NCBI GenBank assembly: GCA_035607055.1
Contig: DATNDC010000129.1
Location: 8,999-72,998 of the forward strand
Length of the DNA stretch: 64,000 bases
Reading direction: 5' to 3'
Source: Polyangia bacterium
GTDB taxonomy: Bacteria; Myxococcota_A; Polyangia; Fen-1088
The notes under the pieces were generated by a model. It did not search any database and was not told the DNA's origin. It worked only from the letters and a program-made list of their open reading frames with translations. The translations under genes and the position numbers were made by a program. Below are positions 4,931 to 45,494 of the stretch, piece after piece (position 1 is the stretch's first letter; each line of letters begins with the position of its first letter).

Positions 4931-7705
4931 GTGCCTATGTCGCAAGCCACATCCAGCGGAAAGCCCAGCCTCTTCATCGTCGACGCGTTGAACTTTTTGT
5001 TCCGCGCGTTTCACGCCCTGCCACCTCTGACTACCACCAAGGGGCTGCAGACCGGGGCCATCTACGGTCTCTCCCAGATGATCTTGAAGATCGAGCGGGA
5101 AGAACGTCCCACCCATCTCTGCGTCGTGTACGACGCCCCGGGCGACAACTTCCGCCACGAGATCTTCGCCGACTACAAGGCGCACCGCCCGCCGATGCCG
5201 CCCGAGCTCGGCGCCCAGCTCGGGATGGTGCGCCGGGTGGTGGAGGCGTTCGGCCTGGCCCAGCTCGAGGTGCCGGGCTTCGAGGCGGACGACATCATCG
5301 CCACCCTGGCGCGCGTGGGCACGGCCGCCGGGATGGAGGTGGTGATCTGCTCGTCGGACAAGGACCTGATGCAGCTCTGCGGCGGCGACGTGTCGGTGCT
5401 CGACACGATGAAGAACCGCCGCTTCGGCGTCGCCGAGGTGAAGGAGAAGTTCGGGGTTCCCCCGGAGCTGGTGGGCGACGTGCTGGCGCTGATGGGCGAC
5501 AGCATCGACAACGTGCCGGGCGTGGCCGGCATCGGGCCCAAGACGGCGGCCGAGCTCGTCAACAAGTTCGGCTCGCTGGAGGCGCTGCTGGCCGGGGCAG
5601 GGGAGATCAAGGGGAAGCGCGGCGCTTCGATCGTCGAGGCGCAGGCGTCGATCCGGCTCTCGCGCGAGCTGGTCCGGCTCCGCGAGGACGTGCCGTTGCC
5701 GAAGACCCTGGCCGAGCTGCATCGGCTCGAACCCGATCGGGAGCGCCTCGGAGGTCTCTTCCGCGAGCTCGAGTTCTCGCGCCTCGCCGAGCAGCTGGGG
5801 GCGTTCGACCGGGAGAACGCCACCAAGGCCGGCGGCGGCCCCGGCGTCGTGGCCTCGGCGCCGCTGCCGGTGGCGCCGGCGCCGGTCCCGGCGCCGCTGC
5901 TGGCCGTCGACACCATCGTCGACCGCGCCGCGCTGGCGGAGCTGGCCCGGCAGATCGAGGCGGCCGGCGCGGTCGGGATCGCCGCGCTCTACGACGGCGG
6001 GTCGGCGGTGCGGGGCGATCTGGTCGGTCTCGCCTTCGCGCTGCCGGCCGGCCGGCGCGCCTACCTTCCGTTTCACCACCGCTACCTCGGCGCGCCCGCC
6101 TGCTTGCCCGAGGCGGCGCTCGCCGATCTCGGCCCCGTCCTGGCGGCCCCGGAGGTCGCCAAGCACGCCCACGACGTCAAGACGCTCGAGGTGCTGCTCG
6201 GCCAGCGCGGGCTGGCGCTGCACGGCGTGGCGTCCGATCCGATGCTGGCCGCCTACCTGCTCGACGCCGCGCGGACGCACTATGACCTCGACGTCGTCGC
6301 CGCCTCGGAGGGGGTGCCGCCGCCGGCGGCGCGCGGGAGCTGGATGGGGACCGGCGCCTCGGCCCGCCCGGGCTCGGACATCTCGGTCGAGGAGGTCGGC
6401 CCGCGGCTCTGCGCCGAGGCGGCGGCCACGCTGGCGCTGGCGGAGGTGCAGGCGCCGCAGATCATCCGGGGCGGGTTCCAGGCGCTCTACCGGGAGATGG
6501 AGCTGCCGCTGGCCGACGTGCTGGCCGAGGTCGAGTGCCGCGGCATCACGCTCGACGTGGGCAAGCTGCGCCAGATCGGCCAGGAGGTCGGCGCCGCGCT
6601 GGTCAGGTTGGAGGCGGAGATCCACGCGGCGGCGGGCGGTCCGTTCAACATCGCCTCGAACAAGCAGCTCGCCGACGTGCTGTTCGGCAAGCTCTCGCTG
6701 CCGGTCGGCCGGCGGACCAAGACCGGCCCGTCAACCGACGCGGATACGCTGGAGGAGCTGGCCGCGCTCCACCCGGTGCCCGCCAAGATCGTCGAATACC
6801 GGGCGCTGGCCAAGCTGCGCGGGACCTACATCGACGCGCTGCCGGCGCTGGTCAACCCGGCGACCGGGCGCCTGCACACCTCGTTCAATCAGGCGGTCGC
6901 CGCCACCGGGCGCCTCTCGTCCAGCAACCCAAATTTGCAGAACATCCCCATCCGCACCGAGATCGGCCGCCGCATCCGCGAGGCGTTCGTGGCCAAGCCG
7001 GATCACCTGCTGGTGTCGGCCGACTACTCGCAGATCGAGCTGCGCATCCTGGCGCATTTCTCCCAGGATCCGGCCTTTCTGGAGGCGTTTCGCTCGGGGC
7101 AAGACATCCACCAGCGAACGGCCGCCGAGGTGTTCGGCGTCCCCGTCGAGGGCGTCACCGCCGAGCAGCGGCGCATCGCCAAGGCGATCAACTTCGGGCT
7201 GGTGTTCGGGCAGAGCGACTTCGGGCTGGCCCAGGTGCTGCGCATCCCGCGCGCGCAGGCCCGCGCCTACATCGACAGCTACTTCGCCCGCTACGCCGGC
7301 GTGCGGGCCTACATGGAGCGGGCCATCGCCGACGCCCGCGCCTCGGCCGCCGTCTCGACGTTGCTGGGGCGCCGCCGCCCGCTCCCCGAGATCCGGGCCA
7401 CGCGGGCGCAGGACCGCGCCTACGCCGAGCGGATCGCCCGCAACACGCCCATCCAGGGCTCGGCCGCCGACCTGCTCAAGATGGCGATGATCCGGGTCGA
7501 GCGGGCGATCGCGGCGGGGACGGCCCCGGTGCCCGCGGCTGCGCTGCTGCTCACGGTCCACGACGAGCTGGTGTTCGAGGTCCCCGAGGGCTCGGTGCCG
7601 GAATTCAAGCAATGGATTAAGAACGAGATGGAAACAGTCTATTTGCTGGAGGTTCCCCTGGTCGTGGATGTGGGCGCCGGGCCGACCTGGGGCGCTGCGC
7701 ACTAG
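4931..7705 (+). CDS. polA: DNA polymerase I
   Basis: 5'-nuclease N-terminus (LFIVDALNFLFRAFHAL, GFEADDIIATLA). Family A polymerase motifs DYSQIELRILAH, RRIAKAINFGLVFG and LLTVHDELVFEV. Confidence 0.97.
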   Translation: MPMSQATSSGKPSLFIVDALNFLFRAFHALPPLTTTKGLQTGAIYGLSQMILKIEREERPTHLCVVYDAPGDNFRHEIFADYKAHRPPMPPELGAQLGMVRRVVEAFGLAQLEVPGFEADDIIATLARVGTAAGMEVVICSSDKDLMQLCGGDVSVLDTMKNRRFGVAEVKEKFGVPPELVGDVLALMGDSIDNVPGVAGIGPKTAAELVNKFGSLEALLAGAGEIKGKRGASIVEAQASIRLSRELVRLREDVPLPKTLAELHRLEPDRERLGGLFRELEFSRLAEQLGAFDRENATKAGGGPGVVASAPLPVAPAPVPAPLLAVDTIVDRAALAELARQIEAAGAVGIAALYDGGSAVRGDLVGLAFALPAGRRAYLPFHHRYLGAPACLPEAALADLGPVLAAPEVAKHAHDVKTLEVLLGQRGLALHGVASDPMLAAYLLDAARTHYDLDVVAASEGVPPPAARGSWMGTGASARPGSDISVEEVGPRLCAEAAATLALAEVQAPQIIRGGFQALYREMELPLADVLAEVECRGITLDVGKLRQIGQEVGAALVRLEAEIHAAAGGPFNIASNKQLADVLFGKLSLPVGRRTKTGPSTDADTLEELAALHPVPAKIVEYRALAKLRGTYIDALPALVNPATGRLHTSFNQAVAATGRLSSSNPNLQNIPIRTEIGRRIREAFVAKPDHLLVSADYSQIELRILAHFSQDPAFLEAFRSGQDIHQRTAAEVFGVPVEGVTAEQRRIAKAINFGLVFGQSDFGLAQVLRIPRAQARAYIDSYFARYAGVRAYMERAIADARASAAVSTLLGRRRPLPEIRATRAQDRAYAERIARNTPIQGSAADLLKMAMIRVERAIAAGTAPVPAAALLLTVHDELVFEVPEGSVPEFKQWIKNEMETVYLLEVPLVVDVGAGPTWGAAH

Positions 7706-7775: not shown

Positions 7776-9107
7776 ATGATGGATGAACCGATGACGCGGG
7801 CGATCTCTTGGGGCGGTCTCGCCACCGGTTTGCTTGCGGGGGGGCTCGCGTTCGGCGGCTGCCACCGGGCGGCGCCGGCGGCGAGGGTCTGTCCGCCCGC
7901 GCCTCCGCCGGTCGCGGCGACGGTCGCCGCGCCGGACAAGGACCCGGCCGAGCCGCCGCCCCGGCCGCTCCGCCGCTGCTTCCCTGACCAACCCGCCTGG
8001 ATCGACGCGCCGGTGGCTGACCTGCTCGACAAGGCGGCGGCGCTGTTCGACAAGGGCGATTACGCCGGGACGCTGGCCTGCGCCGAGGAGGCCGCGCGGG
8101 CGGCGCCCCGTTCGGTCGAGGCGCACCACAACCGGGCGATCGCGCTCATGCGGCTCGACCGCCTCGACGAGGCGCGCGACGCGCTCGAGCTGGCTCTGGC
8201 GCTCTCCCCCGACGATCCGGAGACCCTGGAGGCGGCCGCCGACCTCCAGATCAACCAGCTCCCACCGTCGAACGATCGGTCGGCGCTCGGCCTCGAGTAC
8301 GCCCGCCGTGGCAGCCGGCACGTCTCGCGCCGCGACAGCGAGGAGGTCGCGCGGCTGGCGCTGCTCGAGGGGCAGGCGCTCATCGACATCGGGCGCGCCG
8401 GCGAAGCGCTGCGCCGGATCGACGCGGCGCTGGCGGCCCAGCCGCATTTTTCGGCGGCGGTCTACGAACGAGGCGTGGCGCTGTTCGAGCTCTGTCGCTT
8501 CGACGAGGCGCGCGCGACATTCACCCGCGTGCTCGCCGAGACGCCGGACCACGCGCACGCGCTCTACCACCTCGGCCTCATCGAGGAGCGCACCGGCGAC
8601 GAGCGGGCGGCCGCGCGCCACCTGGCCGCGGCCACGGCCGCCGATCCCAAGTCGTTCCCGCCGGCCCCGCAGATCTCGCAGCCGGAGTTCGAGGCGCGGG
8701 TGAAGCGCGCGGTGGGCGCGCTGCCCCCCGACTTCCAGCGCGATCTCTCGGGCGTGCAGGTCGAGGCGGCCGATCTGCCGGACCTGGAGGACCTGACCGC
8801 GGAGAAGCCGCCGCTGTCGCCGACCATCCTGGGGCTGTTCCGGGGCCTGCCGCTCGATTACGACGAGCAGGCGGCGGCGCCGACGCCGGCGGGGCGGTCG
8901 CGCAAGGGGCACGCGGCGCCGTCGGAGAGCGCGCCCGTGCAGTGCGAGGCCGGGGACCGCGCCATCGTCCTTTATCGTCGAAATCTCCTGCGCACCGTCA
9001 AGGACGGCGCCGAGCTCGACCAGGCGATCACCAAGACCCTGTTGCACGAGGTGGGGCACCTGCGCGGCGAAGACGACGGATCGCTGCGCGATCGCGGCCT
9101 CGAGTAA
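7776..9107 (+). CDS. TPR-repeat lipoprotein with C-terminal zincin-like metallopeptidase (DUF1025-type) domain
   Basis: Start moved to ATG 7776 so the product begins MMDEPMTRAISWGGLATGLLAGGLAFGGC (lipobox). TPR-like helices occupy the middle. The C-terminus carries LLHEVGHLRGEDDGSL (HExxH-like). Confidence 0.7.
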   Translation: MMDEPMTRAISWGGLATGLLAGGLAFGGCHRAAPAARVCPPAPPPVAATVAAPDKDPAEPPPRPLRRCFPDQPAWIDAPVADLLDKAAALFDKGDYAGTLACAEEAARAAPRSVEAHHNRAIALMRLDRLDEARDALELALALSPDDPETLEAAADLQINQLPPSNDRSALGLEYARRGSRHVSRRDSEEVARLALLEGQALIDIGRAGEALRRIDAALAAQPHFSAAVYERGVALFELCRFDEARATFTRVLAETPDHAHALYHLGLIEERTGDERAAARHLAAATAADPKSFPPAPQISQPEFEARVKRAVGALPPDFQRDLSGVQVEAADLPDLEDLTAEKPPLSPTILGLFRGLPLDYDEQAAAPTPAGRSRKGHAAPSESAPVQCEAGDRAIVLYRRNLLRTVKDGAELDQAITKTLLHEVGHLRGEDDGSLRDRGLE

Positions 9108-10199: not shown

Positions 10200-12439
10200 T
10201 CCGCCTGCTCGCGATCGCCCGCCGCGAGTGGGCCGCTTATTTGCGCACCCCGGCGGGCTGGGCGGTGCTGGCGCTATTTCTCTTCTTGCAGGGGATCGTG
10301 TTCTGGATGTTCGTCCAGTTCTTGGGGCGGCCCGACGCCCCGCCGGGCGGGGTGATGGAGTTCTTCTTCGGGGGCACCATCCTCTACTGGCTCGCGCTCG
10401 GCCTTCTGGCGACGGTGTTGCCGATGCGGCTCGTCGCCGAGGAGCTGCGCACGGGCACCATCGAGCCGCTGCTCACGGCGCCGGTCTCGCCGGGCGAGGT
10501 GGTGCTGGGCAAGTGGCTGGGGGCCTTCGGCTTCTACCTGGCGGCCTGGACGCCGACGCTGCTCTATCTGCTCTACCTCGACCGGGTGGGCGCCGGCCTC
10601 GATCCCGGGCCGATCGCCGCCGGCTACCTGGGGACCGTCCTGCTCGGCGCGGCGGCGCTGGCGGTCGGCCTCCTCGCCTCGTCGCTGACGCGCAACCAGC
10701 TCGTCGCCGCGACGCTGTCGTTCGTGGCGTTTCTGGCCGCGCTCCTGGCTGGGGCGCTCGAGGCCGAGGTGCGCGCGCCTGCCACCGCGGCGGCGCTCCG
10801 CCGCTACAGCCTGTTCCGGGTGATGGAGGACTTCGGCCACGGGATCGTCGACACGCGGCCGGTGATCTTGCTCCTCACGGTGGTCGCGCTGGCGCTCGCC
10901 GCCGCGACGGCGCGGATCGGCGCGCTGCGCGGTCCTGCGCCCGAGGACGCGCCGCCGGTGAGCCGCTGGTCGGGGCGGATCGCGGGCGCGCTGGTGGTCG
11001 TCATCGCGTTGCTGGTCAACCTGATCGCCGCCCGCCACTACGCCCGCGGCGACTGGACGCGGGGGTCGCTCTACGCGCTCTCCGACGAGACGGTCGCCGT
11101 CCTGCGCGAGCTGCCGCGCCCGGTCGAGGCGACCGTCTTCCTCTACCCCAAGCGGGACTCCGAGCGCGCGCGGACGGTGGCCGGTTTCGTGCGCGAGCTG
11201 ACCGAGAGGTTCTCGCGCGCGTCGCATGGTCTGTTCCACGCCGAGCTCGTCGATCCCGACCGCGCGCCGGAACGGGCCGAGGCGGCCGCCAAGCGGTACG
11301 GCATCGGCGCCTACGAGATGGGGCAGGGGGCGATCGTGTTCACCTCGGGCGGACGTTCGAAGGTGGTGACCGAGGACGATCTCGTCGAGCCGGAGGTCGA
11401 CGCCGACGGCGAGCCGGGGCCGGCCATTGCCGCCTGGCGGGGCGAGGCGGCGTTCGTCTCGGCGGTCCTGGCGGTCACCGACGACCACCCGCCGCTGGTC
11501 TGCTTCAGCAAGGGGCACGGCGAGCCCGACATCGCGTCGACGGCAGACGGCGGCTACGCGACCTTCGCCGAGAGCCTGCACGGCGCCGGCTACGAAACGC
11601 GCGCCGTCGAGAAGCTGGGCGATCTCGGCGGTGCAGGTTGCCGGGTCGTCGTGGTGGCCGAGCCGACGCAGGCCTTCTCGCCGCCGGAGCTGGCGGCCCT
11701 CGCGGCGTACCTCGACGGCGGCGGGCGTCTGCTGGCCATGGTGGGGCCCGTGTTCGCGCCCGGCGGCGCCGCCTTCGCGCACCTCGGGCTCGGGGCGCTG
11801 GCCGCGCGCTACGGCGTGCGGCTGGGCGACAACCTGGTCGTCGATCCGTCGCGGGCCAGCGACGTCGAGGGGCCCTCGGTCTGGGCGGCCGGCCCGGACA
11901 GCTACGCGCCCCACGCGATCACGGCGCGGCTGGGCGGGCGGCTCACCTTCTGGCCGCGGACGCGCGAGGTCTCGCCCCTGGAGCCGCCCGCGGGGACGAC
12001 CGTCGCGCCGCTCGTGCACACCAGCGCCGAAGGGTGGGGGGAGACTGATCTGGCCACCATCCGGGGAGACGCCGATTTGACCTTCGACGCCGGCCGCGAT
12101 CGGAAGGGCCCGGTCCCGGTGGCGGTGGCCGTCGAGCGGGCGGCCACGAGCGCGACGCCGGCGACACGGCTCGTCTTCCTCGGCACCGGCCGGCTGGTGA
12201 TGAACTACCGCCTCTCGGGCGTCACGCTGCGCGACTACGACGCCGACTTCGTGCTCTCGGCCGTCGGGTGGTTGGCCGGGCGCGAGGCCCGGATCGGCGT
12301 CGGCCCGAAGGTCACCCACCGCGTCGCGCTCACGCTCACCGCCGCCCAGGTGAGCTGGGCGTTTCGGCTGTTCGCGATGGGGCTGCCGTTCCTGGCGCTG
12401 GCGGCGGGGGCCTGGGTCTGGACGCGGCGGCGGGTCTGA
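10196..12439 (+). CDS. Fused ABC-2 permease (GldF-like) and GldG-like auxiliary domain
   Basis: The N-terminal ~240 aa hold six hydrophobic helices typical of ABC-2 permeases. A large soluble GldG-type domain follows, and the C-terminus has a TM helix (FRLFAMGLPFLALAAGAWVW). Confidence 0.8.
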   Translation: MIRLLAIARREWAAYLRTPAGWAVLALFLFLQGIVFWMFVQFLGRPDAPPGGVMEFFFGGTILYWLALGLLATVLPMRLVAEELRTGTIEPLLTAPVSPGEVVLGKWLGAFGFYLAAWTPTLLYLLYLDRVGAGLDPGPIAAGYLGTVLLGAAALAVGLLASSLTRNQLVAATLSFVAFLAALLAGALEAEVRAPATAAALRRYSLFRVMEDFGHGIVDTRPVILLLTVVALALAAATARIGALRGPAPEDAPPVSRWSGRIAGALVVVIALLVNLIAARHYARGDWTRGSLYALSDETVAVLRELPRPVEATVFLYPKRDSERARTVAGFVRELTERFSRASHGLFHAELVDPDRAPERAEAAAKRYGIGAYEMGQGAIVFTSGGRSKVVTEDDLVEPEVDADGEPGPAIAAWRGEAAFVSAVLAVTDDHPPLVCFSKGHGEPDIASTADGGYATFAESLHGAGYETRAVEKLGDLGGAGCRVVVVAEPTQAFSPPELAALAAYLDGGGRLLAMVGPVFAPGGAAFAHLGLGALAARYGVRLGDNLVVDPSRASDVEGPSVWAAGPDSYAPHAITARLGGRLTFWPRTREVSPLEPPAGTTVAPLVHTSAEGWGETDLATIRGDADLTFDAGRDRKGPVPVAVAVERAATSATPATRLVFLGTGRLVMNYRLSGVTLRDYDADFVLSAVGWLAGREARIGVGPKVTHRVALTLTAAQVSWAFRLFAMGLPFLALAAGAWVWTRRRV

Positions 12440-39450: not shown

Positions 39451-40650
39451 CTACTGCGGAGCGGCCGCGGCCTGCAGCGCGGACCGCGTCGACAATTTGC
39501 CCGCCGCCACCTCCGCCGCCAGGGCCGTCAGCTCCGGCAGCGCGGTGCCCGGGTCGGCGGTCGGCGGGCGCACCCCGCCCGGCTTGACGCTGGCGCCGTA
39601 GGTGGTGATGACGAAGATCCGGATGACGTCGGCGCGCTCGGCCGGCAGCGCCCGCGCGTACGCCTCGACGAGATCGCCGATGTCCCTCGGCGGGCGCCCC
39701 TCGAGGACGGCGCGCCCCCAGGCCGAGAGCAGCTTGGCCTGGAAGTTTCGGAAGGGCCCGAGCACGGCGGCCGGGCTGACGCCCTCGGGGATCCGGTCGG
39801 TGACGAACGGCGCGTAGACCTCGGCCGGCGCCACCTTGCGGCCGACCGCCTTCGACTGCGCCAGCCGGTAGAGGACGGTCGCCGCCACGCCGGGATCCTC
39901 CAGCAGGTCCGCGGCGGCCCGCGGCGCGCCATCGGCGCCGAGGACGTACTTGTTCTCGCGGACGCCGGCGAACAGCTCGCGCTGCGTGCTGGTGCCCGCG
40001 CTGGCCGGCAGCGTGCCGGCCGGCCCCTCCCCCATCCGCCATTCGCGGGCGATCACCTCCAGCGCCTCGGCGTAGCCCTCCAGCAAGGGGCGCGGGGGCG
40101 GCGTCGCGGCGCCGGCGGCCACGCGCGCGGCGGCGGCGTACCCGATGAGCCCGGCGAGGGTCTGCGGCAGCGCCCGATCCTGGTCGGGGTAGGCCGGGAG
40201 CGCCAGCCAACCGACCTCGGGATGCTCGTCGACCCCACCGAAGGTCCCCTTGAGCGCCAGCCCCCGGCCCATCTTGGCGCCCACGGGGCCTCCCACCACG
40301 AACGCGGTCGGCTGGGCGGCGGCGGCGCGGGCGTCGTCGGGATAGCGCTTCCCGCCGACGTTCGCCTCACGCACCAGCTGCTTGGCGAGGTAGTCGGTCC
40401 GCAGCACCTCGCTGGCGAACCCGAGGTTGAGCTGGCGGTAGAGCGGCTCGGCGCGCGGATCGTCGGCGGCCACCGAAGCCACCAGCGGCAGCCCGGCCGG
40501 GCTCCGGGGCGCCCCCTCGACCGGCGCGTAGACGACGAACGAATCCGGCAGGCCGAGCGCGTGATCGCGATGGCAACCGCCGGACCCCAGCACCAGCAGC
40601 GTCAGACCGAGCGCCCCCAGGCGCGGGGCGCCCGTCGATCGCACTGTCAT
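39451..40650 (-). CDS. Hypothetical lipoprotein (399 aa)
   Basis: MTVRSTGAPRLGALGLTLLVLGSGGC lipobox. No recognisable catalytic motif. The start overlaps the response-regulator stop (ATGA). Confidence 0.6.
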   Translation of the reverse strand: MTVRSTGAPRLGALGLTLLVLGSGGCHRDHALGLPDSFVVYAPVEGAPRSPAGLPLVASVAADDPRAEPLYRQLNLGFASEVLRTDYLAKQLVREANVGGKRYPDDARAAAAQPTAFVVGGPVGAKMGRGLALKGTFGGVDEHPEVGWLALPAYPDQDRALPQTLAGLIGYAAAARVAAGAATPPPRPLLEGYAEALEVIAREWRMGEGPAGTLPASAGTSTQRELFAGVRENKYVLGADGAPRAAADLLEDPGVAATVLYRLAQSKAVGRKVAPAEVYAPFVTDRIPEGVSPAAVLGPFRNFQAKLLSAWGRAVLEGRPPRDIGDLVEAYARALPAERADVIRIFVITTYGASVKPGGVRPPTADPGTALPELTALAAEVAAGKLSTRSALQAAAAPQ

Positions 40651-41081: not shown

Positions 41082-41153
41082 GTGGTCGCTTCGTGGTCTC
41101 TATAGATCCGAGATCGACATGGATCAATCCTCCCGATCGCAAAAGCTGAAGCG

Positions 41154-41227
<74 letters not shown>

Positions 41228-41416
41228 GTCCCGCTGGCTGCGGGCCTTTCTTTAGCACGAAGGCGACCCGGATCCTCATTCAAGTCCCGTTCCCAGGCCG
41301 ACGATGGGTAACCAGGAAGGGGCGAACGTCGTTCTCCGCCAAAATTATGCCAGCGGCAAAAGCCACGATAAGATATCGACAATCCGCGAAAACGCGCCCG
41401 GCCATCGACACCAGAT

Positions 41417-42016
41417 ATGTCTAGGGGAGACAAACGGTGGATCGTCGCCGGCTCGCTCGCCGCACTGGCGGGGGGGGGCTGGCTCGCGATCCACGAGCGG
41501 CCCGGTGCCAGGCGGCACACCGCCACGGCTGATCGCGTCCCCGGGGACGGTTTTCAGGGGTTCTCGTCACGTCCGTTCTCGGGGGTCGGCGCCGCCCCGG
41601 CGGCGCCGGAGACCCCGGAGATGATTGCCCACGAGGTCGACGGCGTGATGGGGCGCTGGCGGACCGCCATCCTGGTCAAGGATGCTCCGACGGTCGTGGC
41701 GCTCGACCTGACCTTCCGGCAGCAGCCCGAGCGGTTCACGGCGGCGCTCGAGAAGAGCGCCGAGGCCGAGGAGAACGAACGGGTGCGGGCGTTCTCGACC
41801 CGGGTCCTCGGGAAGCTGAAGAACGCGGCCCTTGCCCCGCTCTACCGGCGCCTGCTGTCGGACAAGAGCCCCTATGTGCGCCAGAACGCCGCCTGGGCGC
41901 TGGGCGAGCTGGGCGCGGCCGCGGCGCCTGCGCTCGCCGAGCTGCAGACGGCGAGCACGAAAGATCCGGCCAACGACGTCCGCGCCGCCGCGCGCGACGC
42001 GCTCGGAAAGCTTTGA
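41417..42016 (+). CDS. HEAT-repeat protein with N-terminal membrane anchor
   Basis: WIVAGSLAALAGGGWLAI anchor. HEAT/PBS repeats: ENERVRAFSTRVLGKL, SPYVRQNAAWALGELG, ANDVRAAARDALGKL. Confidence 0.65.
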   Translation: MSRGDKRWIVAGSLAALAGGGWLAIHERPGARRHTATADRVPGDGFQGFSSRPFSGVGAAPAAPETPEMIAHEVDGVMGRWRTAILVKDAPTVVALDLTFRQQPERFTAALEKSAEAEENERVRAFSTRVLGKLKNAALAPLYRRLLSDKSPYVRQNAAWALGELGAAAAPALAELQTASTKDPANDVRAAARDALGKL

Positions 42017-42037
42017 GCAGAGAGAACGGAAGGAATC

Positions 42038-42196
42038 GTGGCTGACAAATCCAAACGAAAGTCGGCTCGGCCCGCCAAGAAGGCGTGGCAGAAGCCGCGC
42101 ATCAAGAGCGGACGGCTGTTCGAATCGAACAGCCTCGCCTGTGGGAAGAACGGCCCGGGCATGGACTCCTGCGAGCAGTTCCCGAAGATGTCATGA
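42038..42196 (+). CDS. Candidate RiPP precursor peptide (52 aa), unannotated in ORF track
   Basis: GTG 42038 lies 3-4 nt after GGAAGGA. Product is (M)ADKSKRKSARPAKKAWQKPRIKSGRLFESNSLACGKNGPGMDSCEQFPKMS. The stop overlaps the next gene's ATG (ATGA). G/C-rich third positions. Confidence 0.5.
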   Translation: MADKSKRKSARPAKKAWQKPRIKSGRLFESNSLACGKNGPGMDSCEQFPKMS

Positions 42197-43512
42197 GTGA
42201 TGTCATGAGCGCGCGCCCTCCCTCCTCTTCCTCTTCCGAGAAGCTGACCCTCTCGATCGGCGGCCTGGTGGGCGAGCTCGCGCTCGTCGGCGCCCCGCCG
42301 GTCTTCCTCGAGCAGGTGCGAGCTCGGTACGGCGCCTTCGCGCTGCCGGCGGTCGGCCACGCGGCGCCCGACTTCGTGCTCCGGTTGAAGCTGGATCCCC
42401 TCCCCCCGCCGGGCGGCTCGCCGGGCAAGCGCCTGGCCGAGACGGAGGCGCGCCCGCTCGAGGTCACGGTCCGCGGGAACGCCGTGTCGGTCCAGCGGTG
42501 GGATCTGGGGGTGCGCTTGCGCGGCCGCGGCGCGGGCTACCGCGGCGAAGGCCACTGCGAGGCGAGCCCGTTTGCGCTGGACTGCGTCCTGCGGGTGCTG
42601 TTCGCGACCCTGCTCCCCCGCGTGGGCGGGATGCTGATTCATGGCTGTGGGCTGCGGCACGCGGCCGTGGGCGTGATCTTCCCCGGCGTGAGCGGCTCCG
42701 GCAAGACGACGCTGGCCCGCAAGGCCCCCGACGCGGACGACGTCCTGTCGGACGAGATCGTGGCGGTCCGACGGCTCGACGACGGCTGGCGCGTGTTCGG
42801 AACGCCCTTCTGGGGGGACTTCGCGCGCGGCGGGATCTCGATGCGCAGCTGGCCGCTGCGCGCGGTGGGCTTCCTGCACCAGGCGCGCGAGGTGGCGATG
42901 ACGCCGATCACCTCGTCGGACGCGACGCTGCGGCTGCTCGGTTGCTTCCTGGCCTTCGCCACCGACCGCGCGTCGGTCGAGCGCAACCTGGCGGTGGCGG
43001 TCCAGCTCTGCGCCGAGGTCCGCTCGGTGGAGGCGAGCCTGACGCGGGCCGCGCCGACGGCGGCGGTGTTCCGCAAGCTCGGGCCGCACCTCGGTCCCGA
43101 GGTGACGCGCAAGGTGCCGCCGGCCAACGCCCGCGAGCTCATCTCGGAGTTCCGCGCGCTCCTGCGCAAGCAGCAGTCGTACACCTTCCGCCCGCGCGCG
43201 GGCGGCGCCGAGGGCTGGCTCAAGAGCGGCGAGGCGCTGGCCGTGGAGCCGCCCGGCGTGGGGGCGCCGCTTTCGCCCGGTGACATCATCCTGGCCTGGA
43301 TCCCCGGGGCCTCGCCCGACGAGGACGCCCTCGCCTGCCGGCGCCTCACGGCGGCGACCGCCCGGGCCGCGGGCGGCGGCGAGCTCCTCGGCCGCGTGAC
43401 GCTGGTCTGCCGCGACGGCAAGCGGCAGCCGCTGCCCGGCCGGGTCGGCGATCTGGCCCGCAGCTTCGGCCCGCTGGTGGCCCTCCCCATGCTCAAGATG
43501 GCCGGACGATGA
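42193..43512 (+). CDS. HPr kinase/phosphorylase-like protein (HprK-related, RiPP-associated)
   Basis: Start set at ATG 42193. The central segment MLIHGCGLRHAAVGVIFPGVSGSGKTTLARK..DDVLSDEIVAV matches the HprK catalytic core (HG..VGVLI.G.SG.GKS...DD). It carries extra N-terminal (~170 aa) and C-terminal (~110 aa) regions. Confidence 0.75.
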   Translation: MSDVMSARPPSSSSSEKLTLSIGGLVGELALVGAPPVFLEQVRARYGAFALPAVGHAAPDFVLRLKLDPLPPPGGSPGKRLAETEARPLEVTVRGNAVSVQRWDLGVRLRGRGAGYRGEGHCEASPFALDCVLRVLFATLLPRVGGMLIHGCGLRHAAVGVIFPGVSGSGKTTLARKAPDADDVLSDEIVAVRRLDDGWRVFGTPFWGDFARGGISMRSWPLRAVGFLHQAREVAMTPITSSDATLRLLGCFLAFATDRASVERNLAVAVQLCAEVRSVEASLTRAAPTAAVFRKLGPHLGPEVTRKVPPANARELISEFRALLRKQQSYTFRPRAGGAEGWLKSGEALAVEPPGVGAPLSPGDIILAWIPGASPDEDALACRRLTAATARAAGGGELLGRVTLVCRDGKRQPLPGRVGDLARSFGPLVALPMLKMAGR

Positions 43513-43778
43513 CCTGGAAGCGCGATCCCGGGCTGCCGTTTCAGACGCTGGAAGAGGAGACCATCGTCGTCGACCCGCGCACGCGCGAGGTCCACCTGCT
43601 GAACGACACCGCGGCCCGAGTCTGGGAGTTGCTCGCGTCGGCCCAGTCGGTCGACGCGCTCACCGCGGCGCTCGGCGAAGAGTACGACGCGCCCGCCGAC
43701 GAGCTGCGCGCCGGCGTCGAAGAGCTGCTCGCGGGGCTCTCTGAAAAGGGCCTGCTGCTCGGCGCCGAGGGGCGCTAG
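43509..43778 (+). CDS. PqqD-family protein (RiPP recognition element type)
   Basis: 89 aa. EETIVVDPRTREVHLLNDTAARVWELLASAQSVDALTAALGEEYDAPADELRAGVEELLAGLSEKGLL is the classic PqqD pattern. ATGA overlap with the upstream gene. Confidence 0.8.
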   Translation: MTWKRDPGLPFQTLEEETIVVDPRTREVHLLNDTAARVWELLASAQSVDALTAALGEEYDAPADELRAGVEELLAGLSEKGLLLGAEGR

Positions 43779-43779
43779 C

Positions 43780-44943
43780 GTGGCGTCGGGACCGCGCTGC
43801 GACGACGACGCGCTCGTCGGCGTGGGCCAGCACGAGGTGGTGAGCCGCGTCCAGAGCCTGGCCTACGAGCGGATGATCCCGCTCAACGTCTCGTTCGAGC
43901 TGACCCTCAAGTGCAACATCCGCTGCCTCCACTGCTACAACTTCGACCGCGACAGCGACGGCCCCGCCAGCTGCGCGGGCGACGCCAGCCTGACGCCCGA
44001 GCTGTCGCTGGACGAGATCCTGCGCGTCCTCGGCGAGCTGCGCGAGGCCGGGACGCTGTTCCTCTCGCTGACCGGCGGCGAGGTGCTGAGCTCGCCCCAC
44101 CTCTTCCCGGTGCTCGACCGCGCGCGCGAGCTGAACCTGGCGGTGCAGCTCCTCAGCAACGGGACGCTGCTGCGGCCGGGGACGGCGGCGCGGCTCGGCA
44201 GCTACCGGAACCTCCTCGGCGTCAGCATCAGCCTCTACGGCGCGACGCCCGAGGTCCACGACGCGGTCACGCAGATCCGCGGCTCCTGGCGGCGGACGCT
44301 GGACGGCGCGGCCCGCCTGCGCGCGCTCGGCGTGGCGGTCCGCCTCAAGCTGATCGTGATGCGGCCCAACGTGCACGAGGTCGGCGCGATGCGCGCTCTG
44401 GCGGACGCGCGGGGCCTCCCCTACCTGCTCGACCTCACGGTCACGGCGCGCCACGACGGGACGCGCGGGAGCCTGGCCATGCGCATCACCGAGGACGAGC
44501 TCGGGGCGCTCTACCGCGGGCCGCTGCGCGATCTCCTCCCCCGGGGGGACCGCTCGGTCGACGAGGCGGCCTTTCCCTGCAACTGCGCGCGCGGCAACTG
44601 CGCCATCTCGGCGCGCGGTGAGGTCTTCCCCTGCGTCTCGGTCCCCTGGGCCGCCGGCAACGTGCGGGAGCGGCCGTTCGGCGAGATCTGGCGCCGCTCG
44701 CCGGTGTTCGAGCGGATCCGGGGGCTCAAGATCGCCGACTACCCCGCCTGCGCCCCCTGCCCCGACAAAGCCTTCTGCTCGCGCGATCGGGGCGCCGCGT
44801 ACAACGCGTCGGGGAGCTACACCGGGACCGACCCGTTCGTCTGCGCCGCCGCCGGCGTGGCGCGCGCCGTCGCCGGAGCGCACGACGATGGGCGCGCCGA
44901 CCTGGACGTCCGCCTGCCGCTGGCCGTTGCGGGGGCGCGCTGA
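43780..44943 (+). CDS. Radical SAM enzyme with SPASM-type C-terminal domain
   Basis: GTG start 1 nt after the PqqD stop. CNIRCLHC (CxxxCxxC). The C-terminus holds 8 further Cys, including CNCARGNCAISARGEVFPC and CAPCPDKAFC (Cx2Cx5C). Confidence 0.88.
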   Translation: MASGPRCDDDALVGVGQHEVVSRVQSLAYERMIPLNVSFELTLKCNIRCLHCYNFDRDSDGPASCAGDASLTPELSLDEILRVLGELREAGTLFLSLTGGEVLSSPHLFPVLDRARELNLAVQLLSNGTLLRPGTAARLGSYRNLLGVSISLYGATPEVHDAVTQIRGSWRRTLDGAARLRALGVAVRLKLIVMRPNVHEVGAMRALADARGLPYLLDLTVTARHDGTRGSLAMRITEDELGALYRGPLRDLLPRGDRSVDEAAFPCNCARGNCAISARGEVFPCVSVPWAAGNVRERPFGEIWRRSPVFERIRGLKIADYPACAPCPDKAFCSRDRGAAYNASGSYTGTDPFVCAAAGVARAVAGAHDDGRADLDVRLPLAVAGAR

Positions 44944-44990
44944 CCTACCTTGTCGGCCGAGCGTCGCCAGATTTATCGTCGGCCGCGAAG

Positions 44991-45494
44991 ATGCCCGCCC
45001 TGACCCCGGTCGTCGAGATCAAACGCACGCTCGCCGGCGGCGAGAAGCGGTTCGAGTGCCTGCGCCTGGCGGGGAACGCGACGCACGCGGTGCTGCTCTG
45101 GATCGCGCGCGCGCCGATGCACGTGCACGGCGTCGACCTCCCCACGGGGACGGTCAGCTTCGGCCACTTCTGGACCGACCGGTTCTTCAACGTGTACCAC
45201 TGGCTCGACGCCGAGCGCCGGACGATGGGCTACTACTTCAACATCGCCGACCGGACGCGGATCGCGACGGCTGAGCTCGAGTGGCGCGATCTGGTGGTCG
45301 ACGTGCTGGCGACGCCGGCCGGCCGGCTGGACGTCCTCGACGAGGACGAGCTCCCCGAGGTGGTCGAGCCCGAGGCGGCGGCCCACATCGCCGCCGGAAA
45401 GGCCGCGGTGCTGGGCGCGCTGCCGGCCATCAGCGCCGAAGTCGAGGCCGCCTCGCGGGCGCTCTTCCCGCTGGTCTTTCCGACGCCTGGCTAG
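44991..45494 (+). CDS. DUF402-like protein (FomD / nucleoside di-/tri-phosphatase-related fold)
   Basis: FGHFWTDRFFNVYHWLDAERRTMGYYFNIADRTRIATAELEWRDLVVDVLATPAGRLDVLDEDEL resembles the DUF402 core. It lies 48 nt after the rSAM gene on the same strand. Confidence 0.6.
   Translation: MPALTPVVEIKRTLAGGEKRFECLRLAGNATHAVLLWIARAPMHVHGVDLPTGTVSFGHFWTDRFFNVYHWLDAERRTMGYYFNIADRTRIATAELEWRDLVVDVLATPAGRLDVLDEDELPEVVEPEAAAHIAAGKAAVLGALPAISAEVEAASRALFPLVFPTPG

Follow-up and report, generated by a model that had tools for sequence, protein, structure and literature searches.

SynChlorMet, GeoRSP, and HPr-rel-A are bioinformatic definitions held in NCBIfam/TIGRFAMs and now in Pfam. SynChlorMet (ScmC, ScmD, ScmE, and ScmF; TIGR04248–04251) comprises an ScmC-family P-loop protein, a PqqD homologue, and radical S-adenosylmethionine (rSAM)/SPASM enzymes; GeoRSP (TIGR04355, TIGR04302, and TIGR04303) comprises an HprK-related P-loop protein, a PqqD chaperone, and an rSAM/SPASM enzyme; and HPr-rel-A (TIGR04352 and TIGR04353) pairs an HprK-related P-loop protein with a PqqD chaperone. 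To our knowledge, the family descriptions of SynChlorMet give no known precursor, and we know of none for the cassettes of ScmC/HprK-like, PqqD, and rSAM/SPASM proteins that have been in the curated databases for a decade. A full-text literature search returned no paper on SynChlorMet, GeoRSP, PF27840, or a kinase-plus-rSAM peptide of the ribosomally synthesised, post-translationally modified kind (RiPP); only papers on lasso-peptide kinases were found. Lasso-peptide pathways of the paeninodin type (with kinases such as PadeK and ThcoK) contain a kinase of the HprK/phosphoenolpyruvate carboxykinase (PEPCK) superfamily, a precursor always ending in Ser, a stand-alone PqqD/B1-type RiPP recognition element (RRE), and a YxxPxL-like leader box. 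In lasso clusters, the target of the HprK homologues is the Ser at the C-terminus of the linear precursor, which they phosphorylate almost irrespective of the remaining peptide (PMC8498205). Sactipeptide, ranthipeptide/SCIFF, PqqE, and MftC systems have rSAM/SPASM enzymes with auxiliary-cluster Cys and a PqqD-type RRE, and sacti- and ranthipeptides have Cys-containing cores. Elements of all these systems recur at one locus of a Polyangia bacterium (assembly GCA_035607055.1), where the PqqD gene is also coupled to the rSAM gene. The locus lies in a stretch of 64,000 nucleotides (nt), hereafter the window, which spans positions 8,999 to 72,998 of the forward strand of contig DATNDC010000129.1; coordinates below are those of the window.

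At 41417–44943, the + strand carries genes for a HEAT-repeat protein, a 52-aa peptide, a 439-aa kinase-like protein, a PqqD protein, and an rSAM/SPASM enzyme. We think it reasonably probable that these form a five-gene RiPP operon composed of the HEAT gene, a precursor, an ScmC-type kinase fused to a dead peptidase domain, PqqD, and the rSAM maturase, which would act by the route proposed below. The features of the locus are as follows.

41417–42016, + strand: HEAT-repeat protein, 199 aa (PF13646 HEAT_2, E 6.5e-15), ending 21 nt 5' of the precursor gene
42038–42196, + strand: precursor peptide, 52 aa, MADKSKRKSARPAKKAWQKPRIKSGRLFESNSLACGKNGPGMDSCEQFPKMS, conserved beside the enzymes; open reading frame of 52 codons with a GTG start and a TGA stop, GGAAGGA 6 nt 5'
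42086–42103, + strand: leader box W17-Q-K-P20-R-I22, [WY]xxPx[IVM], the proposed PqqD/RRE recognition motif, with P20 invariant across phyla
42140–42193, + strand: predicted 18-aa core C35-G-K-N-G-P-G-M-D-S-C45-E-Q-F-P-K-M-S52, following the AXA-like S32-L33-A34
42193–43512, + strand: gene for the 439-aa kinase-like protein, its start within an ATGA overlap
42193–43092, + strand: ScmC-family kinase-like domain of PEPCK/HprK fold (PF27840), residues 1 to ~300 of 439
42685–42711, + strand: P-loop G165-V-S-G-S-G-K171-T-T of the kinase-like domain, whose other motifs are H150, D187-E188, and G203-TPFWGDF210
43126–43509, + strand: degenerate S24/S26 domain (endoplasmic reticulum (ER)/archaeal signal-peptidase-I-like), residues ~312–439, fused to the kinase
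43509–43778, + strand: PqqD-family RRE, 89 aa (PF05402, E 7.5e-18)
43780–44943, + strand: rSAM/SPASM maturase, 387 aa (PF04055, E 2.6e-18; PF13186, E 1.8e-10), with SPASM-region Cys C267, C285, C324, C327, C333, and C355
43912–43935, + strand: rSAM cluster motif C45-x3-C49-x2-C52

The genes from the peptide to the rSAM enzyme are tightly coupled. ATGA overlaps join the peptide gene to the 439-aa gene (42193–42196) and the latter to the PqqD gene (43509–43512), and a single nucleotide separates the PqqD stop (43778) from the rSAM GTG (43780). These coordinates, the two overlaps, and the 1-nt gap (43779) had been given by a first-pass annotation of the same DNA and were correct when re-read from the sequence. 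Its four coupled genes stood, but its operon start did not, as the HEAT gene lies ahead of the peptide gene and probably opens the operon in the window. A promoter and terminator scan of the locus was uninformative in this GC-rich DNA. Long open reading frames lie antisense to the kinase gene (41872–43089, − strand, 405 aa) and to the rSAM gene (43660–44883, − strand, 407 aa); these are not genes, and such shadow frames are usual in GC-rich DNA.

On sequence evidence, the small open reading frame is a genuine and strongly constrained gene, far beyond chance. Polyangia peptides share a Lys/Arg-rich N-terminus, W-x-x-P-x-[IVM], and a near-invariant G-x-L-F-E-S-N-S-L-A-C-G-K, after which come a variable stretch with one further Cys and then the C-terminal Ser. 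The leader box was seen in all precursor peptides compared, and P20, E29, L33, C35, K37, C45, and S52 were invariant across phyla; a further conserved Ser/Thr position lies at E29-S30. All 103 distinct peptides from the loci end in Ser, 102 of the 103 have two Cys counted from C-G-K, and 78 of the 103 measure 18 residues from C-G-K to the end. A profile built from eight precursor peptides matched 1180 protein clusters at E ≤ 0.01, none of which carried a name or a Pfam domain, and exactly two Cys and a final Ser were found in each of the best 120 of these 1180 clusters (120/120). Across more than 200 peptides, the C-terminal Ser was the most invariant feature of the precursor. The precursor family models in NCBIfam gave no match for the small open reading frame. 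The LFESNSLACGK block was identical as protein in 100 loci and was encoded by 60 different DNA versions, in which third codon positions varied at 11 of 11 codons, first positions at 3, and second positions at 1. These synonymous versions indicate that selection acts on the precursor protein and not on the DNA. The core is near-invariant in the Acidobacteriota type (CGKLPGQGG[ILV]CN[AG][AS]PRRS), and its C-terminal half is variable among Polyangia.

To place the cassette, one genome per species was scanned for relatives of the 439-aa protein, which gave 54 loci (given L numbers here), 40 of them from Polyangia/Myxococcota. The order HEAT, peptide, kinase-like, PqqD, rSAM was found in all 40, with a recognisable peptide in each, and the peptide gene also adjoins the enzymes in 80 metagenome loci and on additional contigs. 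It lies 3' of the rSAM gene in Candidatus Acidoferrum (L050; precursor MAEDNKNSPPASGGKKPYTKPTVVSEPIYETLALACGKLPGQGGICNGAPRRS), in a Dormibacterota metagenome-assembled genome (MAG; L052), and in a Eubacteriales MAG (L049). Metagenome contigs L135–L140 carry a third precursor subfamily (..KKPYQKPAFRSERVFETLALACGKIGATTPQCQFSRKSS), in the order peptide, S24 peptidase, kinase-like, PqqD, rSAM. The first-pass annotation had proposed asking whether homologous kinase–PqqD–rSAM trios carry a conserved peptide gene; one was present in every trio examined. The cassette family is large and uncharacterised, occurs in Polyangia, Acidobacteriota, Dormibacterota, and a Eubacteriales MAG, and is a sister of SynChlorMet. 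Some arrangements depart from these orders. The peptide gene of L121 is on the opposite strand, ~4 kb from the rSAM–S24–kinase genes. Two loci of Dormibacterota type, L058 (7385–10162) and L060 (1522–4278), have two extra genes between the peptide and the S24 peptidase, the first for a ~760-aa secreted protein (with a CBM96 match in L060 and faint PQQ-like beta-propeller matches) and the second for a 158-aa protein with a lipoprotein-like signal sequence; these could be accessory components or insertions.

The PqqD and rSAM/SPASM assignments of the first-pass annotation were borne out by the PF05402, PF04055, and PF13186 matches. In NCBIfam, the window PqqD was best matched by NF033530, the PqqD chaperone of lasso pathways (E 5.6e-9), and by the HPr-rel-A PqqD TIGR04353 (35.1 bits, cut-off 35). 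In the rSAM enzyme, C45, C49, and C52 and six further SPASM-region Cys were invariant across phyla. Its scores fell below all NCBIfam cut-offs: AhbD 127 (cut-off 500), NirJ2 116, MftC (TIGR03962) 103.6 (265), ScmE 90.3 (400), WgkB 86 (650), PqqE (TIGR02109) 81.2 (381), GeoRSP 70.6 (400), and ScmF 66.6 (400). The closest solved relative by sequence was PqqE (6c8v, E 8e-12).

The 439-aa protein was assigned to the ScmC family. Precomputed PF27840.1 (ScmC) matches exist for all listed homologues and for P0001, a protein with 100% identity to that of the window. A local Pfam copy without PF27840 gave no match at E ≤ 0.01, HprK_C (PF07475) included. The best NCBIfam match was likewise ScmC (TIGR04249, 32.9 bits, E 4e-8, cut-off 125), followed by HprK-related kinase B and ATP-PEPCK, all far under their cut-offs; ScmC was also the best NCBIfam match for the kinase-like proteins of distant cassettes (41–43 bits). 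Relatives numbered 5244 representatives at 50% identity (E ≤ 1e-3), and H150, G165-x-S-G-x-G-K-T, D187-E188, and G-T-P-F-W-G-D-F were invariant from Polyangia to Armatimonadota, Acidobacteriota, and Firmicutes. A first AlphaFold model from 13 near-identical Polyangia sequences had a kinase core with a predicted local distance difference test (pLDDT) score <50 and was discarded; the model used was built from a 31-sequence alignment including Armatimonadota homologues (pLDDT 88). A Foldseek search with this model ranked ATP-dependent PEP carboxykinase highest (E about 1e-6), with HPr kinase/phosphatase next (1knx, E 9e-4; 1jb1, template modelling score 0.52), and sequence-profile searches of the PDB gave only generic P-loops and weak PEPCK matches. 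The model therefore supports the term HprK-like for the fold and the P-loop chemistry, and the protein is a member of the ScmC family rather than an HprK orthologue. Hence, of the HPr-kinase core named in the first-pass annotation, the PEPCK/HprK fold stood and membership of PF07475 did not.

The remainder of the 439-aa protein had no match in Pfam or NCBIfam. By hhalign, the corresponding domains of the window clade aligned with the stand-alone peptidases of other cassettes (probability 95.1%, E 3.1e-8), and tblastn with an intact-motif Polyangia domain recovered the S24 genes that stand alone in L050 (E 1e-7) and L052 (E 5e-6). An S24/S26 gene occurs in or near every non-Polyangia cassette (L049, 1006–1479; L050, 8543–9265; L052, ~11208–11687), and that of L050 passes the archaeal/ER-type signal peptidase I model TIGR02228 (53.5, cut-off 51.85). 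The stand-alone peptidases have invariant GxSMxP, HR, and GD motifs and no transmembrane segment. Deep-branching Polyangia retain G-[STGN]-S-M-[RK]-P-W, C-H-R-M, and the K-G-D-A segment in the fused domain. The window protein and its closer relatives (L001–L016, L024, L028, and L030) instead read A-G-G-A-E-G-W and A-C-R-R-L, and a K-G-D segment of ~25 residues is deleted. Intermediate states were found in Polyangia loci L020–L023, L039, and L040, where the His is kept (C-H-R-[VI]), the K-G-D segment is gone, and Ser-Met is replaced (G-A-G-L-R-P or G-S-G-L-R-P); these suggest that activity was lost step by step within Polyangia. Of 150 listed kinase-protein representatives, 149 had retrievable sequences, and among these GxSMxP is kept in 17 sequences of 386–479 residues and in two shorter ones (310 and 360 residues). 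Judged by the loss of the catalytic Ser, His, and GD box, the domain of the window is almost certainly inactive, and it probably survives as a peptide-binding module. The first-pass annotation had seen no leader protease in the window; an S24/S26-like domain is in fact present within the kinase protein, with its catalytic motifs lost.

Here, we propose a four-step route for the cassette. First, PqqD would bind the Lys/Arg-rich leader through the [WY]xxPx[IV] box, a candidate motif whose spacing we take to be equal to that of the YxxPxL box of lasso leaders; this binding is inferred from that spacing and from the lasso-like score of the RRE. Second, the rSAM/SPASM enzyme would install one or two cross-links through C35 and C45. 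RRE-dependent SPASM enzymes most commonly form thioethers on Cys-bearing cores, and thioethers would be the most likely product here. The invariant C-G-K triplet is a candidate site and, speculatively, recalls three-residue cross-link motifs. Third, the ATP-binding PEPCK/HprK-fold domain would phosphorylate the invariant Ser52, by analogy with the lasso HprK homologues; the invariant C-terminal Ser fits the paeninodin analogy already drawn in the first-pass annotation. Fourth, a soluble Ser-His S24/S26 peptidase would cut after the AXA-like [SA]-L-[AS], leaving an 18-residue core with an N-terminal Cys and a C-terminal (phospho)Ser. Signal-peptidase-type enzymes follow a −3/−1 small-residue rule, which the [SA]-L-[AS] junction fits, and the putative cleavage site rests on this pattern and on the associated S24/S26 peptidase.

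The surroundings of the operon bear on what its product might do, and the following neighbours were identified.

39451–40650, − strand: 399-aa protein, no Pfam match
41153–41227, − strand: tRNA-Arg(CCT), in the 335-nt spacer from the response-regulator gene to the HEAT gene
From 44991, + strand: DUF402 gene (PF04167, E 1.1e-13)

The flanking genes are housekeeping genes. On one side lie GDP-mannose dehydratase (Gmd), GDP-fucose synthase, the 399-aa protein, a response regulator, and tRNA-Arg(CCT); on the other, DUF402, a GluQRS-like synthetase, Apt, a LysM-M23 peptidase, Pcm, SurE, and MerR. The DUF402 gene, which the first-pass annotation had noted after the rSAM gene, was correctly identified, although it begins 47 nt rather than 48 nt after the rSAM stop (44943). 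It was rejected as a cassette member: it is adjacent only in closer relatives of the window, is 2–4.5 kb away in other Polyangia loci (such as L020–L022, L026, L027, L029, L037, and L039), and was matched by nothing in the cassettes from outside Polyangia (L049, L050, and L052), and is therefore only a lineage-specific neighbour. No transporter or immunity gene was found near the cassette in the flanks of the window or in the Acidobacteriota and Dormibacterota loci, which agrees with the earlier remark that no dedicated exporter is visible. In most Polyangia loci, the 399-aa protein is syntenic 5' of the response regulator, with 50–88% identity. By the tRNA gene, the + strand has a terminator-like hairpin that begins at 41230, and an Rfam scan returned the tRNA only.

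The missing exporter, the housekeeping flanks, and the unusually conserved core speak for a role within the producing cell and against a secreted antibiotic. It is possible, though we remain rather doubtful, that the product is an endogenous factor: it could be a redox or metal cofactor derived from the peptide, or it could regulate processes inside the cell, for example. This reading is compatible with the proposed route. The near-invariance of the core within subfamilies such as the Acidobacteriota type, the synteny among housekeeping genes in both Polyangia and Acidobacteriota, the lack of a transporter or immunity gene beside cassettes whose peptidases are soluble, and the position of PqqE as the closest solved rSAM relative all favour it. 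Against it, the reacting residues and their surroundings are fixed in PqqA and MftA, whereas the C-terminal half of the core varies in Polyangia. Moreover, no partner oxidoreductase is conserved beside the cassette, and RiPP exporters can be unlinked.

A second alternative keeps the same cassette and changes the part played by the kinase-like protein, which would be an ATP-dependent helper and not a C-terminal Ser kinase. Its target for phosphorylation or adenylation might lie elsewhere (the conserved leader E-[ST] or a carboxylate), or it might hold the peptide in place while the rSAM enzyme acts; the invariant Ser would in that case be a requirement of the rSAM enzyme or of the peptidase. 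A precedent is offered by MftC, whose site of action on MftA is the C-terminal residue, and MftC is among the better rSAM matches (104 bits), although this score is far under the cut-off of 265. The Foldseek ranking of PEPCK above HprK/P together with the absent HprK_C match, the occurrence of ScmC-like proteins with no peptide or rSAM gene nearby, and the further conserved Ser/Thr at E29-S30 also speak for a helper. On the other side, no feature of the precursor is as invariant as its final Ser, and C-terminal Ser phosphorylation is the sole characterised precedent for this kinase superfamily in RiPP clusters (PMC8498205). We consider a helper role unlikely.

It is extremely improbable that the rSAM protein is a non-RiPP enzyme of AhbD/NirJ type (haem/tetrapyrrole) and the small open reading frame a chance frame: AhbD and NirJ2 give the top NCBIfam scores and GC-rich DNA does yield spurious frames such as the 405-aa one above, but these scores are a quarter of the cut-offs (500), translational coupling ties the rSAM gene to that of a PqqD RRE, and this reading is effectively refuted by a peptide gene that accompanies the enzymes in four phyla, in differing gene orders and with purely synonymous drift.

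Several observations weigh against the five-gene operon and its route as proposed. The type of cross-link, the phosphorylation, and the cleavage site are inferences. For the final cleavage step, the operon of the window lineage has no competent enzyme; with the fused peptidase dead, the leader would be cleaved by an unlinked enzyme or not at all. In the Polyangia rSAM enzymes, the fourth Cys of the canonical CX2CX5CX3C SPASM motif is missing: residues 324–337 of the window enzyme (44749–44791) read C-A-P-C-P-D-K-A-F-C-S-R-D-R. The Polyangia enzymes have additional Cys within C-N-C-A-R-G-N-C, and those of Acidobacteriota, Dormibacterota, and Eubacteriales have a fourth Cys nearby (C-x2-C-x5-C-x2-C in L050 and L052). 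The modelled fold of the kinase-like domain scores nearer to PEPCK than to HprK/P and comes with no HprK_C match. ScmC-like genes also occur as orphans: stand-alone genes of ~268 aa lie directly 3' of a DprA-like gene in nine genomes, L041–L048 and L053 (Armatimonadota and unclassified bacterial MAGs; at position ~6000–6800 in most loci), and others are found in L051 (a Planctomycetales MAG) and L054 (an unclassified bacterial MAG). Within the available sequence (up to 6 kb) on each side of these Armatimonadota, L051, and L054 genes, no PqqD, rSAM, or peptide gene was found, and a precursor motif search in the same loci found none, indicating that the kinase-like domain has uses outside the cassette. 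Finally, the HEAT gene is absent from the Acidobacteriota and Dormibacterota cassettes. It is directly 5' of the peptide gene in 40 of 40 Polyangia genome loci and in the Polyangia-type metagenome loci, and a 120-aa HEAT protein occurs in the Eubacteriales cassette L049; given this pattern, it is best treated as a lineage-dependent accessory.

A broader proposal may also be made, which we advance only tentatively: the cassettes would represent an unrecognised, multi-phylum class of RiPP, whose product is an 18-residue peptide that begins with Cys, is cross-linked through Cys, ends in phospho-Ser, is made by a kinase/RRE/rSAM-SPASM/S24 toolkit, and serves as an intracellular cofactor, metal ligand, or regulator. 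The precursor type of the locus would then be the first assigned to ScmC-type cassettes. A relative of the cassettes listed with precursor unknown now has a defined, constrained precursor family and a dedicated, soluble S24/S26 leader peptidase, and with both in hand the chemistry is directly testable. The family is common in abundant, poorly cultivated soil lineages (Polyangia, Acidobacteriota, and Dormibacterota), and its setting among housekeeping genes, with no exporter and a conserved core, is unusual for a RiPP and makes a physiological rather than an antibiotic role plausible. The dead peptidase fused to the kinase is a natural experiment in which a leader peptidase seems to have turned into a non-catalytic module. 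Another rSAM RiPP cassette would not astonish specialists; the value here is in the size and conservation of the family, the identified precursor and peptidase, the genomic context of housekeeping genes without an exporter, and the decay of the fused peptidase.

Compared with the described systems, the locus is related to several of them. The first-pass annotation had called it a candidate RiPP pathway built on a combination it did not recognise as a characterised class. The pathway itself is supported by the precursor, the PqqD RRE, the rSAM/SPASM enzyme, and the kinase of HprK/PEPCK fold. The combination is not wholly unrecognised, because the kinase-like protein belongs to Pfam ScmC and the locus is thereby related to the HprK-related/ScmC, PqqD, and rSAM/SPASM cassettes already defined in NCBIfam and Pfam as SynChlorMet and GeoRSP. 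The databases catalogue the present family only in part, and no characterisation of it was found. SynChlorMet has two rSAM enzymes and the locus one, and its cut-offs were missed by ScmC (32.9 against 125), ScmD (TIGR04248, 17.3 against 100), ScmE (90.3 against 400), and ScmF (66.6 against 400); in the window family, unlike SynChlorMet, an S24/S26 peptidase belongs to the cassette and the precursor is identified. The GeoRSP cut-offs were also missed (HprK-related kinase B, 15.9 against 200; rSAM, 70.6 against 400), and the window PqqD did not match the GeoRSP PqqD TIGR04302 (cut-off 100), for which the L050 PqqD scored 25.9. For HPr-rel-A, the window PqqD is borderline (35.1 against 35 for TIGR04353), and the window kinase-like protein had no match to kinase A, TIGR04352 (cut-off 200), against which the L050 protein scored 32. 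A lasso-type pathway was rejected: as the first-pass annotation had noted, neither a lasso cyclase (Asn-synthetase-like) nor a B2 transglutaminase protease was found by Pfam among the cassette genes or in the scanned flanks, all of which had a different assignment or no Pfam match. Where paeninodin-type clusters have these, the locus has an rSAM/SPASM enzyme and an S24/S26 peptidase, and its core bears two invariant Cys but lacks a macrolactam acceptor pattern. It differs from the sacti- and ranthipeptides in matching no curated maturase or precursor family, in having only two core Cys, and in the added kinase and S24/S26 peptidase. The locus is part phosphorylated-lasso-like, in its kinase, RRE, leader box, and C-terminal Ser, and part sacti-/ranthipeptide-like, in its rSAM/SPASM enzyme and Cys, and is a member of neither group.

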